DNA from: Candidatus Thorarchaeota archaeon
Lineage (GTDB): Archaea; Asgardarchaeota; Thorarchaeia; Thorarchaeales; Thorarchaeaceae
NCBI GenBank assembly: GCA_003345555.1
Contig: PRDJ01000020.1
Location: forward strand, 1-5,557
Direction of reading: 5' to 3'
DNA length: 5,557 nt
In this document: positions 1 through 5,326 of the stretch, in pieces
How positions within the stretch are numbered: the stretch's first letter is position 1
How the letters are laid out: each line of letters begins with the position of its first letter
Notes under the pieces: generated by a model
Told to the model about the DNA's origin: nothing
What the model saw: the letters and a program-made list of their open reading frames with translations, nothing else
The model's database searches: none
Program-made: the position numbers and the translations under genes

Positions 1-674
1 AGACCAGCCACCACGAGCAAGATTGCACCAAATGCCATGCTGATACCGGTCACAACTAGAGGCGGCGCAATCCGGTCCCTGTTAATCGACCTGCCCATGA
101 CTGATGAGACCGCATTTGCGACTAACGACAGTATCACAACTGCCACACCCAAGGTCTCGGACGCAGGCACGCCCGCGGGATAGAAGTAAAGCATCGCTCC
201 CACTACTGCGAGCACTATGAGACCAACCTGTGTCAAGGACGGTACTTCCCGAAGGAAGGTTGCCCCTAGTACCAGTACAATCAAAGGTGTCAGGTTCAGC
301 AACAGTGATACTGTGATTGCCGGCAGCAATGCGAGCGCTACAAACTGTGTGCCCTGAGTGATGGCCACGAATACAATGCCGTACGAAGTGATTTGTCTCC
401 ACCAGCGTCGGCTTTGTCTTCTCGCGGCACTTCGATAGTCGGCTCTAGACATGATGATACCTAGCAGTATCAATGAGGCGAGAGTGTATCTGAGTCCGGA
501 AAAGGTGATAGGAGGTATGTCTTTGAGGCCGAATTTTATAATCACCCACGATGATGACCAGAGAACTGTGACTAGAAGTGCCTCAATCACTGCAAGAGCA
601 TACTTCTTAGACACTGAATCCTCGCGGGCAGCTGGTGTATCTTGTCCTTCTCCGGGAGCAATATCTTCGGTCAA
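1..674 (-). CDS. EamA/DMT-superfamily (drug/metabolite transporter) membrane protein, 3'-truncated by the window edge
   Basis: Manual translation of the minus frame (codons at 3-5, 6-8, ...) has no stop from 827 to the left edge. It reads ...KKYALAVIEALLVTVLWSSSWVIIKFGLKDIPPITFSGLRYTLASLILLGIIMSR...YGIVFVAITQGTQFVALALLPAITVSLLLNLTPLIVLVLGATFLREVPSLTQVGLIVLAVVGAMLYFYP...GVAVVILSLVANAVSSVMGRSINRDRIAPPLVVTGISMAFGAILLVVAG. The W-x-x-x-W-x-x-x-K..PP..F..LRY first-helix pattern, the 'P..V.VLG..FLRE' motif and repeated TM helices are typical of EamA. The start is uncertain: TTG at 674 chosen; GTG at 614 and ATG at 827 are in frame. Not in the ORF track. Confidence 0.9.
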   Translation of the reverse strand, partial: MTEDIAPGEGQDTPAAREDSVSKKYALAVIEALLVTVLWSSSWVIIKFGLKDIPPITFSGLRYTLASLILLGIIMSRADYRSAARRQSRRWWRQITSYGIVFVAITQGTQFVALALLPAITVSLLLNLTPLIVLVLGATFLREVPSLTQVGLIVLAVVGAMLYFYPAGVPASETLGVAVVILSLVANAVSSVMGRSINRDRIAPPLVVTGISMAFGAILLVVAG

Positions 675-798
675 TCTACTTCGCCAAGAGAGGAATTTCC
701 TTCTAGCAGGATTGATGATGTACGAATCGCAGGTCGGCCGCTTATTATTATGGCGGTGCTCTAGGTCTCTATTGAAAGCCTGTGCTGCTTGAGCCTTC

Positions 799-813
799 AA
801 TAATGATATTACT
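799..813. promoter_or_regulatory. AT-rich inverted repeat (AATAATGATATTACT; core TAAT-gat-ATTA) in the divergent eamA / oxidoreductase intergenic region; candidate promoter or operator
   Basis: Core palindrome at 801-811, about 50 nt upstream of ATG 859. It is one of two conspicuous AT-rich patches in this intergenic region (the other is at 741-750). An AGGA SD-like element lies at 845-848. Confidence 0.3.
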
Positions 814-858
814 TGCTTGGCACTCATTTCCCGCTGTTGAATCTAGGAATGATGCCGG

Positions 859-2283
859 ATGACATCCATTGAGTCGGTCTACAGACGCCTTGTGGAGATT
901 GCAGGGTCTGAGTATGTCAGCAACGAACTATGTGATCGGCTGGCGTATTCAAAGGACTACTCCATAGAAGGGATTGCCAAGGACTATACACCAGACATAG
1001 TTGTGAAGCCTGCTAATTCTGATGAAATCGTAGAGATTGTGAAGGCAGCCAACGAGTTTGATGTGCCGCTTTATACTTGGGGCGCAGGAACGAGCATGTC
1101 CGGCAATCCACTTGCCGTCAGACATGGCCTTGTCTTGGACATGAAACGTATGAACCAGATACTTGAGATTGACAGCGAGAATCTCACCATGACAGTGCAA
1201 GCAGGAACCGTCCATGATGAGATCTATAGGACAGCTCTCAAGCACAACCTATTCTTCACACATCATCCGGAAAGCAGCATCTCATCAACGATAGGTGGAG
1301 CACTCAGCTGCATGGGCATGAGCATTTACGGAGCAAAGTATGGGTATGCCTACGACCAAGTTCTCGGTGTGGAGGTTGTTCTCGGAACAGGCCAGAAGAT
1401 GAGGATTGGCGGAAAGAACTACCTGTCCCTGCCAACGCACAATTTGCTCAACTTGTTTCTCGGAGCTGAGGGCACACTTGGAATCATCACTGAAGTGACA
1501 TTGAAGGTCTATCCCTTGCCCGCATTCAGAGACAGAGTGAGCTATGGGTTTGCAGACATCAGAACCTCTATGGAAGCATGCAAGCGGATTCACAGTTCCG
1601 GGTGCTGGCCCGAGACGGTCTATGCCTTCGACAGACGCTCTCTTGTCCAGTATATGGAGCGTGCCAAGACTCCTATTCCAAGTGAGGTTCGTATGGCTGT
1701 CCTTTTCGGATGCTCTGGGGACACTGACATGGTCGAAAAGAGCTTGGAAGTTGTCTCTCGGTGCTGCGAAGAGTACGGCGGTTCACGTCTTCCTGCTGAA
1801 GTGACCGAGTCATGGTGGAAATCCGTCAACATCACAAGGGAGAATTTCGACCAGAGCAATTTTGCTCTCTCACACACTGCATATGAACCCGATTTGATAG
1901 ATGCGTGTGTTCCATTCAGTCGTTTCCAAGAATACAGCGATTTCTGTGATGAGCTCAAGCGGGAATTCGGCTGGGTCGAGATAGACTTCGGAGCGTTTGC
2001 CGTTGCAGCCCCCAGAGGGCCGATTCCGTTCTGCATATACTTCAGTGTGCCCATTGATACTCGTATTCCGCGTGAGGTAAATCATTGGTTCGAATTCAAG
2101 GAGCGGATGTACCGTCGCGCTCTTGAGCTCGGCGGCAGCGTGTCCGACGCTAATGGAGTTGGTCTAAGGTCAGCTCCTTGGGTCCGGGAGGAACTAGGCC
2201 CCGCGTGGCAGCTCCTGACTGGCATAAAGCTGCTTGTGGACCCGAAGCGCATATTGAACAGAGGAAACAGGGGGTTTGACTGA
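859..2283 (+). CDS. FAD-linked oxidoreductase, VAO/PCMH family (FAD_binding_4 + FAD-oxidase_C; GlcD/D-lactate dehydrogenase/alkyl-DHAP-synthase superfamily), substrate unknown
   Basis: 474 aa. Family motifs: PDIVVKP, WGAGTSMSG, LVLDMKRMNQILEID, VQAG, STIGG...KYG, VLGVEVVLGTG, FLGAEGTLGIITEVTLK and C-terminal GGSVS-xxx-GVG...IKLLVDPKRILN. The His/Glu metal ligands of GlcD/Dld are absent (see findings), so no gene symbol is given. Confidence 0.93.
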   Translation: MTSIESVYRRLVEIAGSEYVSNELCDRLAYSKDYSIEGIAKDYTPDIVVKPANSDEIVEIVKAANEFDVPLYTWGAGTSMSGNPLAVRHGLVLDMKRMNQILEIDSENLTMTVQAGTVHDEIYRTALKHNLFFTHHPESSISSTIGGALSCMGMSIYGAKYGYAYDQVLGVEVVLGTGQKMRIGGKNYLSLPTHNLLNLFLGAEGTLGIITEVTLKVYPLPAFRDRVSYGFADIRTSMEACKRIHSSGCWPETVYAFDRRSLVQYMERAKTPIPSEVRMAVLFGCSGDTDMVEKSLEVVSRCCEEYGGSRLPAEVTESWWKSVNITRENFDQSNFALSHTAYEPDLIDACVPFSRFQEYSDFCDELKREFGWVEIDFGAFAVAAPRGPIPFCIYFSVPIDTRIPREVNHWFEFKERMYRRALELGGSVSDANGVGLRSAPWVREELGPAWQLLTGIKLLVDPKRILNRGNRGFD

Positions 2284-3440
2284 TGGCGGTTCGTCTCGCA
2301 AAGTACGAGGACTGGGCCCGTGCGTGCATGCATGTAAGATGCGGGTTCTGTCGTGAGAACTGCTGTTCATATCGCCAATTCAAGTTCGACTCATATTCAG
2401 CGAAGGGCAGATTGACGCTCATGTATCATTGGCTGAAAGGAAACCTGAGGCCTGACAGCACCATGGCTCAACGCGTTTTTTCTTGCACTAGCTGTGGCCT
2501 TTGTGACATCGCGTGTGGATATCCCCAGAGTGAAGCCATCCAAGAGATGAAGACTGCTCTCCTTGAAGCCAACGTGCTGCCTCCTGAAGATTACATGGTC
2601 ATAAGCAGGCGGACCAGAGAGACCGGTAATCCCTATGCTGAGGACTCATCACAAGCGTCGAATCTTCTTCGGGCGATTTCCAAATCTGGAACTGGTCCTG
2701 CGGAATTCACACTCTTCTTTGGATGCACGGAGCTCTTTCGTTCACCAAAACAACTAGACTATGTAACCAATATCCTGAGGGCCGCGAAAGCATCCTTCTA
2801 TGTCTTTCCTCAGAACATATGTTGCGGTTCTCCAGCTAGGAGAATCGGGGACATAGAGCAGGCACGAGCACAAGCGGAATTGGTCTCAGCGGCATTTGAA
2901 TCATCCGGGCCGCGCGACATCGTAGTCTCGTGTTCGGGATGCTACAGAACATTCACGAAGGACTACGCGAGTCTCACTGACCAAGCGCCTGCCTTTTCAA
3001 CCAAGCATACAGTCCAGCTCATAGACACGCTGATTGCCGAGAACAGACTTGTGCTCGGTTCACTTAGCAAGAGGATTACCTATCACGATCCTTGCCACCT
3101 TGGAAGACATTGTGGTGTGTATGATGAGCCAAGGAGGATTCTCAAGGCAATCCCCGGAGTCGAGCTAGTGGAAATGGAATGGAACCGTAAGATCTCGAGA
3201 TGTTGCGGAGCCGGGGGTGGCATGAAAGTGGGGCGCCCCCAAGACGCGGCAGAGATTGCTTCTTGCAGAGTTCAAGAAGCGAAGGAGGCAGGAGCCAGCG
3301 TTCTCGTAACCGCATGTCCTTTCTGCGTGAGGAATCTCAGTGATGGAGCCCGGCTGATCGGCTCAGATATTGAGATCAAAACTATCGAGTTCTTAGTATC
3401 TGAGCTCGTTGGTATTGCTGGTCGGCCGCGAAAGAAGTAG
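2283..3440 (+). CDS. Iron-sulfur protein with an N-terminal 2x[4Fe-4S] ferredoxin-like domain and two cysteine-rich CCG domains (GlcF/GlpC/HdrD-like)
   Basis: 385 aa. Ferredoxin-type cysteines C15,C20,C23,C27(C28) and C68,C71,C74,C78. CCG domain 1 is GC-X31-CC(G)-X35-CSGC; CCG domain 2 is YHDPC-X35-CC(GAGGG)-X36-CPFC. Both fit the CX31-39CCX35-36CXXC consensus. Its ATG overlaps the upstream TGA (TGATG at 2281-2285), indicating translational coupling. Confidence 0.93.
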   Translation: MAVRLAKYEDWARACMHVRCGFCRENCCSYRQFKFDSYSAKGRLTLMYHWLKGNLRPDSTMAQRVFSCTSCGLCDIACGYPQSEAIQEMKTALLEANVLPPEDYMVISRRTRETGNPYAEDSSQASNLLRAISKSGTGPAEFTLFFGCTELFRSPKQLDYVTNILRAAKASFYVFPQNICCGSPARRIGDIEQARAQAELVSAAFESSGPRDIVVSCSGCYRTFTKDYASLTDQAPAFSTKHTVQLIDTLIAENRLVLGSLSKRITYHDPCHLGRHCGVYDEPRRILKAIPGVELVEMEWNRKISRCCGAGGGMKVGRPQDAAEIASCRVQEAKEAGASVLVTACPFCVRNLSDGARLIGSDIEIKTIEFLVSELVGIAGRPRKK

Positions 3441-3520: not shown

Positions 3521-3943
3521 TCACAATGTCTTCTGCAGCAACGTGCTGAATGTATTGTGATGGTCTTCCTCATCCTCGAGGATGTCCTCGAAGAGTTCCC
3601 AAGTGACATAATCCTTCTCAGCCATCGCCTTCTCGATGGTCTGCCTGTAGAGAGTTATGGCCTCTTCTTCTGCTTTCTTGTCCAGTGTGACCATCTCTTC
3701 GGGCGTTTTGCCAACCGTTATCGGGGCTGGCACAGTTGTGGGCTCGCCGCCAAGGTAGTCAATCCGATCCGCGATGCTTTCTGCATGCTTCATTTCTTGG
3801 ATTGCTATCTTCTTGAGCTCATCAGCGATTGGGAGATGAGTGAAACCGAATATCCGAACATGCTGCCACATGTACTGGATGGACACCTGTATCTCTCGTG
3901 CTAATCCCTTGTTCATCAAATCAAGTAATTCTTTGGACGCCAT
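3521..3943 (-). CDS. bfr: Bacterioferritin-like (ferritin-superfamily) di-iron protein, short 140-aa form
   Basis: The true start is probably ATG 3943 (MASKELLDLMNKGLAREIQVSIQYMWQH...), 8 nt downstream of a GAGGA SD (3956-3952), rather than 4021 in the ORF track. Ferroxidase-centre residues E17, E50, H53, E92, E125, H128 and Y24 match E. coli Bfr E18/E51/H54/E94/E127/H130/Y25. The heme-ligand Met is kept (EMKH, M51). Confidence 0.88.
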   Translation of the reverse strand: MASKELLDLMNKGLAREIQVSIQYMWQHVRIFGFTHLPIADELKKIAIQEMKHAESIADRIDYLGGEPTTVPAPITVGKTPEEMVTLDKKAEEEAITLYRQTIEKAMAEKDYVTWELFEDILEDEEDHHNTFSTLLQKTL

Positions 3944-3995
3944 AGTAGCATTCCTCAAGTGGAATTGAATCCAATAGAGGACGCTGTACATGTTG

Positions 3996-4005
3996 CTTAT
4001 TAAAG
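3996..4005 (-). promoter_or_regulatory. TATA-box-like element for the ferritin-like gene
   Basis: Minus strand cTTTAATAAg, 53-62 nt upstream of ATG 3943. Archaeal spacing would give a leader of about 30 nt containing the SD. Confidence 0.45.
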
Positions 4006-4080
4006 TGCAGGCATGGCACATCTTGGCTGTTTTGACTACATTAAAAAAACGTGCCGTGTTCTAATCATCGGGCCTAGAAT

Positions 4081-4120: not shown

Positions 4121-5326
4121 TTGATACACCCCTTGAGTATGAATCAATCGTTGTCTGACATTACTGAAGTTCTCGTGACCCGTCGGACTGGTGAGCTAAG
4201 AGAGCTGTTTCAGCATTCGCTGGACACCGGCCTACTGCCAGAATTCGTCAATTCCCTGAGCATTATCTCGCAAGGACCAATGAGACAGCGTTGGGGCATT
4301 CTGAGGAGTATCCTCTTCGAGGTTCTCTGTATTGCCGATCTACAGGGGCTCGATAGGGATCCGGTCGATATCATCAACAGAGTTGGCAAACTAGAGGGCA
4401 GGCCAATCAGCAGTTCTGCTCGGCCCTTTGCGATTGAGCTTCTTCGCGAGCAGGTCGCTCGGTACAACACTTTCTTTCTGGACATAGATGCTCTCCAGAA
4501 ATCATTGGGTGCAGTCCTTGTTCCGCAGATAATTGAGGCAAGGCTCGCAGAAGTCAAACATATGTGTAGGGGAAGGGTTAGCTCGTCCGCCCTTATCTCA
4601 ACATACTACGGGTTTACGTTCGCCACTTCAGCCGTGAGGCAAGAAGAATGGAGCGCAGGCCTCCATAGTTTCCTTGGAGAACTCGGGATACTTGGTGATG
4701 ATATATCATGTACTATGGAGTATGATTTTGACCCAGAGCTGGTCTCGTTCAGCAATGCCTCTGACCAGACCGCTGAGCTATTGAAGACTATCTTGGTGCT
4801 TACAGGTCCGAATTCGGGCAAACGTGCAGAGGCGGCAGAGCGACTGGGCTGTATCGCCGATCCGAGGTCCGAGTACTACCTTCGTAAAGTTGCAGGAGAT
4901 CAATACCCGTGGGTAAGACTGTCAGCTATCAGGGCGCTCACCGAGATAGCACTGCCTCCCAGTGTGCTCACATTCATTCATGCTTTGGGCGATCTTGACT
5001 CCAGCGTACGGTCTGAAGCGGTGAAAGGGCTTGTGGCAGTAGGACCCCCAGCTGTGGCCCCTCTAATCAGCATACTCTCTAAGGAACCTAACATTGACTA
5101 TGCTGATACACTCCGCGCAGCGGAGGTCGCTCATCCGAGGTCGCTTGACAATCTAGCCGCGGCATTGACACAGCGATTCAACATCACAAAAGCACTTGCG
5201 GCAGAGGCGCTCGGGAAGATTGGCGACGATAGAGCAGTTCCGTCTCTTCTTCAGCTCGGCCGGGGTCAGGACGAACAACTCAGAAGCATAGCTTTGAACG
5301 CGCTCAATACATTTGGGAAATCTTGA
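4121..5326 (+). CDS. HEAT-repeat (PBS-lyase HEAT-like) protein with an uncharacterised N-terminal domain of about 220 aa
   Basis: 401 aa from TTG 4121 (alternative ATG at 4139). About six repeats of roughly 31 aa from aa ~222: ...KRAEAAERLGCIADPRSEYYL / ...DQYPWVRLSAIRALTEIALP / ...LGDLDSSVRSEAVKGLVAVGPPAVAPL / a degenerate unit / ...KALAAEALGKIGDDRAVPSL / ...QDEQLRSIALNAL. These match the L.D....VR..A..AL..IG....V..L HEAT-like pattern. Confidence 0.85.
   Translation: MIHPLSMNQSLSDITEVLVTRRTGELRELFQHSLDTGLLPEFVNSLSIISQGPMRQRWGILRSILFEVLCIADLQGLDRDPVDIINRVGKLEGRPISSSARPFAIELLREQVARYNTFFLDIDALQKSLGAVLVPQIIEARLAEVKHMCRGRVSSSALISTYYGFTFATSAVRQEEWSAGLHSFLGELGILGDDISCTMEYDFDPELVSFSNASDQTAELLKTILVLTGPNSGKRAEAAERLGCIADPRSEYYLRKVAGDQYPWVRLSAIRALTEIALPPSVLTFIHALGDLDSSVRSEAVKGLVAVGPPAVAPLISILSKEPNIDYADTLRAAEVAHPRSLDNLAAALTQRFNITKALAAEALGKIGDDRAVPSLLQLGRGQDEQLRSIALNALNTFGKS

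Follow-up and report, generated by a model that had tools for sequence, protein, structure and literature searches.

How can a protein that automatic annotation calls a 'glycolate oxidase' or 'FAD-binding oxidoreductase' be an enzyme when its active site has none of the residues on which catalysis by the studied enzymes depends? The question is raised by a contig of a Candidatus Thorarchaeota archaeon (PRDJ01000020.1, here C20), the whole of which, 5,557 nucleotides (5.5 kb), is the window analyzed here; it belongs to a Thorarchaeota-type Asgard genome assembly of 2.28 Mb that is 93% complete (GCA_003345555.1). The protein, which we call P0001, is a flavin adenine dinucleotide (FAD) flavoprotein encoded at 859-2283, and the gene after it, at 2283-3440, encodes an iron-sulfur (Fe-S) protein, P0271. 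We conclude, with fair confidence, that the two make up a two-subunit FAD/Fe-S dehydrogenase, soluble or membrane associated, the catalytic flavoprotein of which would work with neither a metal site nor a catalytic histidine.

P0001 is clearly a member of the FAD-linked oxidase (VAO-PCMH) superfamily, in the branch that contains GlcD and alkylglycerone-phosphate synthase (AGPS). Both of its Pfam domains are nearly full length (FAD_binding_4, PF01565, E 4e-35; FAD-oxidase_C, PF02913, E 3.7e-25), it keeps the invariant Gly, Pro and Glu columns, retaining 17 of 17 columns that are invariant across 117 family members, and its fold matches those of the superfamily at Z 32-44. Its NCBIfam matches all fall below threshold, GlcD scoring 214 bits against a cut-off of 568. 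A preliminary description, made from the DNA letters, had listed a series of motifs, and a scripted check of the translation found each of them where it had been placed: HHPES at residues 135-139, STIGG at 143-147, FGAFAVAAPRGPIPFCIYF at 377-395 with CIYF at 392-395 inside it, GGSVSDANGVG at 425-435 with DAN at 430-432, and WVREELG at 441-447. The family motifs that it had cited for comparison are also accurate. FGHAGDGN[LI]H and G-E-H-G, the latter within GGxxSGEHGxG, are present in more than 80 GlcD-type sequences and in E. coli GlcD, and guinea-pig AGPS has GHEPDS..STVGG, GACIY578F and GGSLSH615HHGVG, with 32 residues from Y578 to G610.

What these motifs imply is best seen against mouse LDHD, in which H398, H405 and E442 form the Mn2+ site, H443 serves as base and R347 secures the carboxylate; every alanine mutant of these residues is inactive (PMC10589216). 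In P0001 the His-His-Glu site for a divalent metal that characterizes the metal-dependent D-2-hydroxyacid dehydrogenases is absent, its three positions being occupied by A379, Y394 and A431, and in place of the catalytic histidine of G-E-H-G there is N432, invariant in 31 orthologues; LDHD G441, by our reading of the motif, corresponds to D430. The same differences separate P0001 from GlcD (FHAGDGNMH, GEHG), human D2HGDH and Acetobacterium LctD. Against AGPS, the HHH loop (H615-H617) is replaced by D430-A431-N432, the clade as a whole having [DNE]-[AVG]-N. The preliminary claim that P0001 has neither the metal ligands and catalytic histidine of LDHD and GlcD nor the HHH loop of AGPS is thus borne out by the alignments. 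Since the active-site residues of the studied enzymes are missing, Asgard reconstructions that call P0001 a glycolate or D-lactate dehydrogenase rest on nothing. A literature search on glycolate oxidase or FAD-linked D-lactate oxidation in Thorarchaeota found no paper, and one on D-lactate dehydrogenase with HdrD in Asgard archaea turned up a single study, of Hydrothermarchaeota.

Three residues of P0001 do resemble AGPS. H135 and E138 align with AGPS H300 and D303, and the position of the AGPS catalytic tyrosine (guinea-pig Y578, Dictyostelium Y508) is held by the invariant Y394, aligned by way of the AGPS-type protein P0037 and an AGPS-type profile. Both MAFFT and hhalign put Y394 on the position of the second metal-binding histidine; the phmmer register is shifted by two residues on the same strand, and in either register C392 and Y394 are expected to point the same way. 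In the residue correspondence, A379 is paired with LDHD H398 and with no AGPS residue, and H135 and E138 are paired with no LDHD residue. Two of the AGPS patterns to which the preliminary description had appealed, the 31-residue spacing and the exact CIYF, call for caution. Y394 and G425 are 31 residues apart, and so are the second metal-binding histidine and the same GG in E. coli GlcD and mouse LDHD; a spacing of 31-32, common to GlcD, LDHD and AGPS, thus belongs to the fold and does not speak for kinship with AGPS. In CIYF only the tyrosine is invariant, both among the orthologues and among AGPS-type proteins (CFYF, NMYF, SIYM and similar), and the exact four-letter match is therefore partly coincidence.

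The replacements are themselves conserved. P0001 and 30 further orthologues, at 56-93% identity and a mean column identity of 84%, come, where source names exist, from Thorarchaeota and from one member of the Sifarchaeia; the next relatives outside the group share at most 36% identity. H135, P137, E138, S139, R386, Y394 and N432 do not vary in any of the 31 sequences. At 430 there is D, N or E, and at 431 A, V or G. The preliminary description had allowed that its DAN motif might be strain-specific decay. Instead, loss of the histidines is fixed under selection across the whole orthologue clade, and replacement residues that stay invariant down to 56% identity indicate that this is not decay. 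From this pattern the flavoprotein is probably active with a different active site, and the dehydrogenase is probably metal independent. The invariant R386, which lies in a clade-specific insertion just before the tyrosine strand, is a candidate for a new anion-binding residue.

An alternative is that the flavoprotein is catalytically dead, like GlcE, and serves as a structural or electron-relay subunit, the chemistry taking place at the CCG clusters of the partner (for example, thiol/disulfide chemistry of the TfrB/HdrB kind) or on a third subunit encoded elsewhere. All the canonical catalytic residues are indeed missing, the best NCBIfam match of the partner is TfrB (177 bits), and GlcE is a precedent for a His-less paralogue inside a real complex. 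However, GlcE is a short protein of about 350 amino acids that stands beside a complete GlcD, whereas P0001 has 474 amino acids and keeps the full cap domain; no second flavoprotein gene, catalytically complete or otherwise, is adjacent to the pair in any of 18 loci. Nor is there a metal-site gene of GlcD/Dld type among the ten paralogues in its own 93%-complete genome. Moreover, a dead site would be expected to drift, whereas Y394, N432, E138, H135 and R386 are invariant. We therefore regard a dead flavoprotein as improbable.

Where, then, does P0001 belong? A quick IQ-TREE tree of 74 sequences (LG+C20+F+G4, with support from the Shimodaira-Hasegawa-like approximate likelihood ratio test, SH-aLRT) separates a GlcD-type clade of 15 rows (SH-aLRT 100) from an AGPS/YgcU-type core, also of 15 rows and including E. 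coli YgcU and P0037 (100), which lies inside a 26-row clade (95). Eukaryotic AGPS, LDHD and D2HGDH are outside this tree; P0037, P0040 (best PDB hit AGPS, E 1e-67) and YgcU stand in for AGPS. P0001 is excluded from both groups and falls in a separate 'His-less' clade of 23 rows (99), within which the Thorarchaeota group is supported at 100. The placement inside a characterized Dld/GlcD clade that would have undone the preliminary description did not occur, and its statement that P0001 is neither a standard lactate/glycolate dehydrogenase nor a standard ether-lipid synthase agrees with the tree.

Its more specific claim, that the protein is AGPS related, fares less well. The GlcD-type, AGPS-type and His-less clades form a polytomy, and the approximately unbiased (AU) test rejects neither a grouping of the His-less clade with the AGPS type (p 0.63) nor one with the GlcD type (p 0.63). 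Profile comparison with hhalign gives a higher score against the GlcD type (645) than against the AGPS type (591), and P0001 is about 30% identical to GlcD over its full length. Superposition of the AlphaFold model (predicted local distance difference test score, pLDDT, 89.4), a check that had been proposed at the outset, also points away from AGPS. The closest folds are mouse LDHD (PDB 8JDE; Z 44.4, root-mean-square deviation 2.2 over 447 aligned residues), LctD (7QH2; Z 41.9) and D2HGDH (6LPN; Z 40.2), with which P0001 shares a three-domain fold over about 450 residues; AGPS (4BBY, 2UUU) matches at Z 35-36, level with vanillyl-alcohol oxidases. Language-model look-alikes in the ESM Atlas do not discriminate, generic FAD-oxidoreductase clusters and the YgcU cluster all scoring 0.97. 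P0001 does share with AGPS and YgcU a G/T-H-x-P-[DEQ]-S loop, a GGS-x-S...G-x-G frame and W-[LV]-[KR]-E-E-L-G. The AGPS-like traits are nevertheless local, consisting of H135, E138 and Y394, and 'AGPS-like scaffold' overstates a few resemblances.

These data suggest that P0001 represents a third lineage, one that has no characterized members and is architecturally a GlcD/GlcF-type dehydrogenase. Its relatives in the 23-row clade include metagenomic proteins named 'glycolate oxidase' or 'FAD-binding oxidoreductase' (P0122-P0135 and P0036, 30-36% identity). They too are without both sets of histidines, and several keep the P-E-S motif. Unlike P0001, however, they have SFAVY...SHTG, SWSVY...SYYG and other combinations at the former active site, the set of Y394, N432 and R386 being confined to the Thorarchaeota clade. 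In nearly every subclade the residues at this site differ, a pattern that radiation onto different substrates would be expected to produce.

If P0001 is a dehydrogenase, its electrons must go somewhere, and the gene that follows offers a route. Its ATG overlaps the TGA of the flavoprotein gene (TGATG), a 4-nucleotide start/stop overlap, and in 17 of 18 loci a partner gene comes next after that for the flavoprotein, the eighteenth stopping at a contig edge. The cluster cysteines of the partner and both of its CCG cysteine motifs are invariant or nearly so. In the sister clades, P0133 and P0124 are likewise followed by a Fer4_8 plus CCG gene; the one downstream of P0122, truncated where the contig ends, shows Fer4_8 only. 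This arrangement, a PF01565 plus PF02913 flavoprotein and then a Fer4_8 protein with two CCG domains, is that of E. coli GlcD-GlcF (of GlcDEF) and of two-gene D-lactate dehydrogenases. Unlike GlcDEF, the pair has no GlcE-like third subunit with it; and in the LctD structure 7QH2 the electron partner is EtfAB, in place of the CCG Fe-S protein predicted here.

We also asked whether P0001 and P0271 are predicted to bind each other. The complex prediction gave a score of 0.86, and the best of three controls reached 0.01. Among 80 solved complexes 58 attained this mark, against 2 among 110 mismatched pairs; our own alignments and the FAD carried along in the prediction make these counts approximate. 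Contacts agree to at least 83% between runs, and pLDDT in the partner is at least 89. In the model the N-terminal cluster motif of the partner (Cys15/20/23) faces flavoprotein loops 76-78 and 139-142, touching residues 139 and 141-142, while the rest of the interface is made by an invariant N-terminal stretch, 18-34, and a clade-specific insertion, 325-343. The model thus supports binding of the partner to the flavoprotein in a predicted two-subunit architecture of the GlcD/GlcF type. In one genome (L030:5870-8038, minus strand) the partner open reading frame (ORF) runs to 722 amino acids, about twice the usual length, with Pfam matches in its first half only, possibly as the result of fusion, read-through or mis-assembly.

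The partner also bears on whether P0001 could be an AGPS-like enzyme with covalent flavin chemistry, in which a carbanion generated by Tyr394 would add to flavin N5 for a redox-neutral exchange on a substrate resembling dihydroxyacetone phosphate (DHAP) or on another carbonyl compound. H135, the acidic E138 and Y394, which occupies the place of Tyr578, the residue proposed as base in AGPS (PMC3509576), would suit such a mechanism; a grouping with the AGPS-type clade survives the AU test, and the YgcU cluster is among the top look-alikes. Several findings speak against it. The HHH loop, of which AGPS His616 and His617 are active-site residues (PMC13019191), is D/N/E-A-N here. The position of Arg419, which in Dictyostelium (R352) is important for catalysis (PMC3509576), is Y255, Tyr or Phe in the clade, by our reading, anchored on a proline (AGPS P415, P0001 P251) and an aspartate (D422, D258). 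The H-x-S-H motif of AGPS-type proteins is absent, and both the AGPS-type core clade and the fold comparison place P0001 elsewhere. In AGPS an extra N-terminal part and a gating-helix domain control a long lipid channel (PMC3509576). The P0001 model aligns only from about AGPS residue 159 on, leaving the first 158 or so residues without a counterpart (474 amino acids, against 535-552 residues in the aligned AGPS chains).

Finally, catalysis by AGPS is redox neutral (PMC3509576), and we infer that it needs no acceptor; a conserved and translationally coupled Fe-S subunit, kept in 17 of 18 loci, is not what such an enzyme would require and argues for net electron transfer. Even the true AGPS-type paralogue in the same genome is flanked by Fe-S genes of the CCG kind, which suggests that prokaryotic AGPS-like proteins are dehydrogenases. 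Overall we consider an AGPS-like reaction very improbable for P0001.

That paralogue deserves description in its own right. On another contig (C8; L002:341-4135, minus strand) an AGPS/YgcU-type protein of 475 amino acids, with its tyrosine in 'SIYM' and with 'SHQHGVG' (L002:1462-2889), is encoded between two genes for Fer4_8 proteins with two CCG domains, and it has a 4-nucleotide overlap with the downstream one. Matches like it, covering the same range of a GlcD-type query at about 30% identity, are found in most genomes of the family. The prokaryotic 'AGPS-like' proteins seen here look like Fe-S-linked dehydrogenases rather than ether-lipid synthases. That the AGPS-type protein of the same genome is also wired to Fe-S proteins bears on a possible dehydrogenase origin of the redox-neutral ether-lipid enzyme of eukaryotes.

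For the dehydrogenase that we favor, with an architecture resembling GlcD-GlcF, or Dld paired with an HdrD-like protein, the following course can be proposed. A small hydroxylated substrate would bind at the flavin; the gene neighborhoods hint at a 2-hydroxy acid derived from a sugar, or at a related alcohol or aldehyde hydrate. N432 and R386 might hold it, and the hydroxyl proton could be abstracted by Y394, which has the position of the AGPS base Tyr578, or by E138 or H135 next to the flavin. Hydride would pass to N5 of FAD, and the electrons would leave through the N-terminal [4Fe-4S] cluster of the partner and then its CCG clusters to an acceptor, possibly a disulfide, a quinone-like carrier or ferredoxin.

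Several points weigh against this reading. Activity is deduced from conservation alone, in a His-less lineage that has no characterized member. The carboxylate-binding arginine of LDHD, R347, which is paired with no AGPS residue, has no secure equivalent in P0001: phmmer matches it to R327, a position that is R or K in the clade, and hhalign to V323. In the complex model, furthermore, residue 327 forms part of the subunit interface. GlcD-type rows dominate the alignment from which the structure was predicted, which may bias the model toward a GlcD-type fold. The module is patchy, 20 of 76 further genomes sampled in the family having it. And the neighborhoods differ between genera and give no single pathway, only the Fe-S partner being constant.

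The distribution is narrow as well as patchy. At E <= 1e-90 the gene is absent from all 224 genomes sampled in 29 other families of the phylum, and we take the pair to be an accessory, lineage-restricted module. The canonical Dld-type class, with 'H..H..AEHG', has matches in 18 of 81 sampled genomes of the family. Two genomes (G242 and G284) have both the module and a canonical gene, where about four would be expected, although the samples differ and related genomes are not independent. Six loci of the canonical type were read in other genomes of the family (L041-L046). Each has a gene of the metal-site Dld/GlcD type for about 490-510 amino acids, with 'FCHTGIGIIH ... AEHGxG', and in five of the six it lies near an ORF of about 360-390 amino acids that resembles a membrane protein; the genome studied here has no such gene.

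Could P0001 nevertheless be the D-lactate or glycolate dehydrogenase of the organism, acting on the substrates of GlcD and Dld with a catalytic apparatus exchanged for a metal-free one? Its two-subunit architecture is that of GlcD-GlcF, D-lactate dehydrogenases are its closest structures, and no canonical Dld or GlcD was found in its own genome. Three loci have a VOC/glyoxalase-family gene immediately upstream in the same orientation, and in five there is a transketolase neighbor. In LDHD, however, the metal chelates the 2-hydroxy-carboxylate and the ligand mutants are all dead (PMC10589216), so that loss of the site, together with the missing base, suggests another binding mode or another substrate. 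Moreover, in G242 and G284 the module and the canonical gene coexist and are not obviously redundant. Simple replacement of a D-lactate dehydrogenase is possible but not indicated, and overall we consider that P0001 is unlikely to have kept these substrates.

The genes around the FAD/Fe-S pair in the window (Table 1) and in other loci are a loose pointer to carbonyl compounds or to hydroxy acids derived from sugars. The neighbors comprise EamA transporters, MFS sugar transporters and SDR, cupin, transketolase and VOC/glyoxalase proteins, and they vary by genus: transketolase, HTH_10 and EamA in one case, MFS, SDR, cupin and small GTPase in another, and VOC in a third. An EamA gene is near the pair in loci of one related genus as well as in the window, and it is possible that the EamA protein transports the substrate or the product. 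The HEAT-repeat gene of the window is not conserved beside the pair in the other loci.

Table 1. Genes of the 5,557-nucleotide window and motifs of the flavoprotein (window coordinates)
Feature	Position	Strand	Description
EamA-family transporter gene	3..827	-	Pfam EamA E 2e-21; divergent from the pair, cut by the contig end
Flavoprotein gene (P0001, 474 aa)	859..2283	+	FAD_binding_4 + FAD-oxidase_C; proposed catalytic subunit
H135-H-P-E138-S139 loop	1261..1275	+	Aligns with AGPS G-H300-E-P-D303-S and GlcD-type P-D-P-[AGS]-S; H135, P137, E138 and S139 invariant
F377-G-A379	1987..1995	+	A379 aligns with the first metal-binding His (mouse LDHD H398; GlcD FGH motif)
P385-R386-G387	2011..2019	+	Invariant; within an 8-residue clade-specific insertion (relative to GlcD type, hhalign) right before the Tyr strand
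C392-I-Y394-F	2032..2043	+	Invariant Y394 aligns with the second metal-binding His, LDHD H405, and with AGPS Tyr578
G425-G-S-V-S-D430-A431-N432-G-V-G435	2131..2163	+	A431 for LDHD E442 / AGPS H616; invariant N432 for LDHD H443 / AGPS H617; D430 for AGPS H615
Iron-sulfur partner gene (P0271, 385 aa)	2283..3440	+	Fer4_8 dicluster domain + two intact CCG domains, GlcF/HdrD/TfrB type (Pfam, NCBIfam)
Ferritin-like gene	3521..4021	-	PF00210, weak bacterioferritin/Dps matches; converges on the partner gene
401-aa protein gene, TTG start	4121..5326	+	HEAT repeats of the PBS-lyase type, HEAT_2 E 4e-19; weak NblB/CpcF-like matches

What would follow if the pair is the enzyme proposed here? At the least, there would be a sizeable lineage of FAD/Fe-S dehydrogenases without characterized members, in which active sites that vary by subclade amount to a reservoir of substrate specificities. 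More tentatively, the His-less relatives and the Thorarchaeota clade may together make up a third major lineage of the GlcD/AGPS branch, needing neither metal nor histidine base, with a Tyr/Glu (or Tyr/Glu/Arg) site, a class of substrate new to this family and HdrD/GlcF-like wiring. If that were true, the catalytic tyrosine of AGPS would go back to anaerobic Fe-S-linked dehydrogenases and would have been recruited later for eukaryotic ether-lipid synthesis. In practical terms, the pair offers a well-defined target of two genes that can be expressed and screened for substrates.

There is a weak hint that the genes are expressed. Contigs from a wetland metatranscriptome match positions 1994-2142 of the window exactly and 2908-3057 with one mismatch, although an RNA library of this kind may contain DNA, and the uncovered parts of the window are uninformative.

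Other observations concern the wider surroundings. Three other loci (L012, L013 and L036) also have a homologous ferritin-like gene close to the pair. In these and in L037, all from one genus, the pair is preceded by divergent genes for a small GTPase of the Arf/Ras/Roc type, about 350 amino acids long, and an MFS sugar transporter, forming a conserved trio.

Finally, the genome of P0001 contains a further relative on another contig (C1:4869-6824; L003:1363-3318, plus strand), a protein of 652 amino acids in which FAD_binding_4 and FAD-oxidase_C are fused to a NuoB-like Oxidored_q6 domain. Oxidored_q6 is the 20-kDa subunit of complex I and of hydrogenases, and a VAO-type flavoprotein joined to such a module is an unusual fusion.

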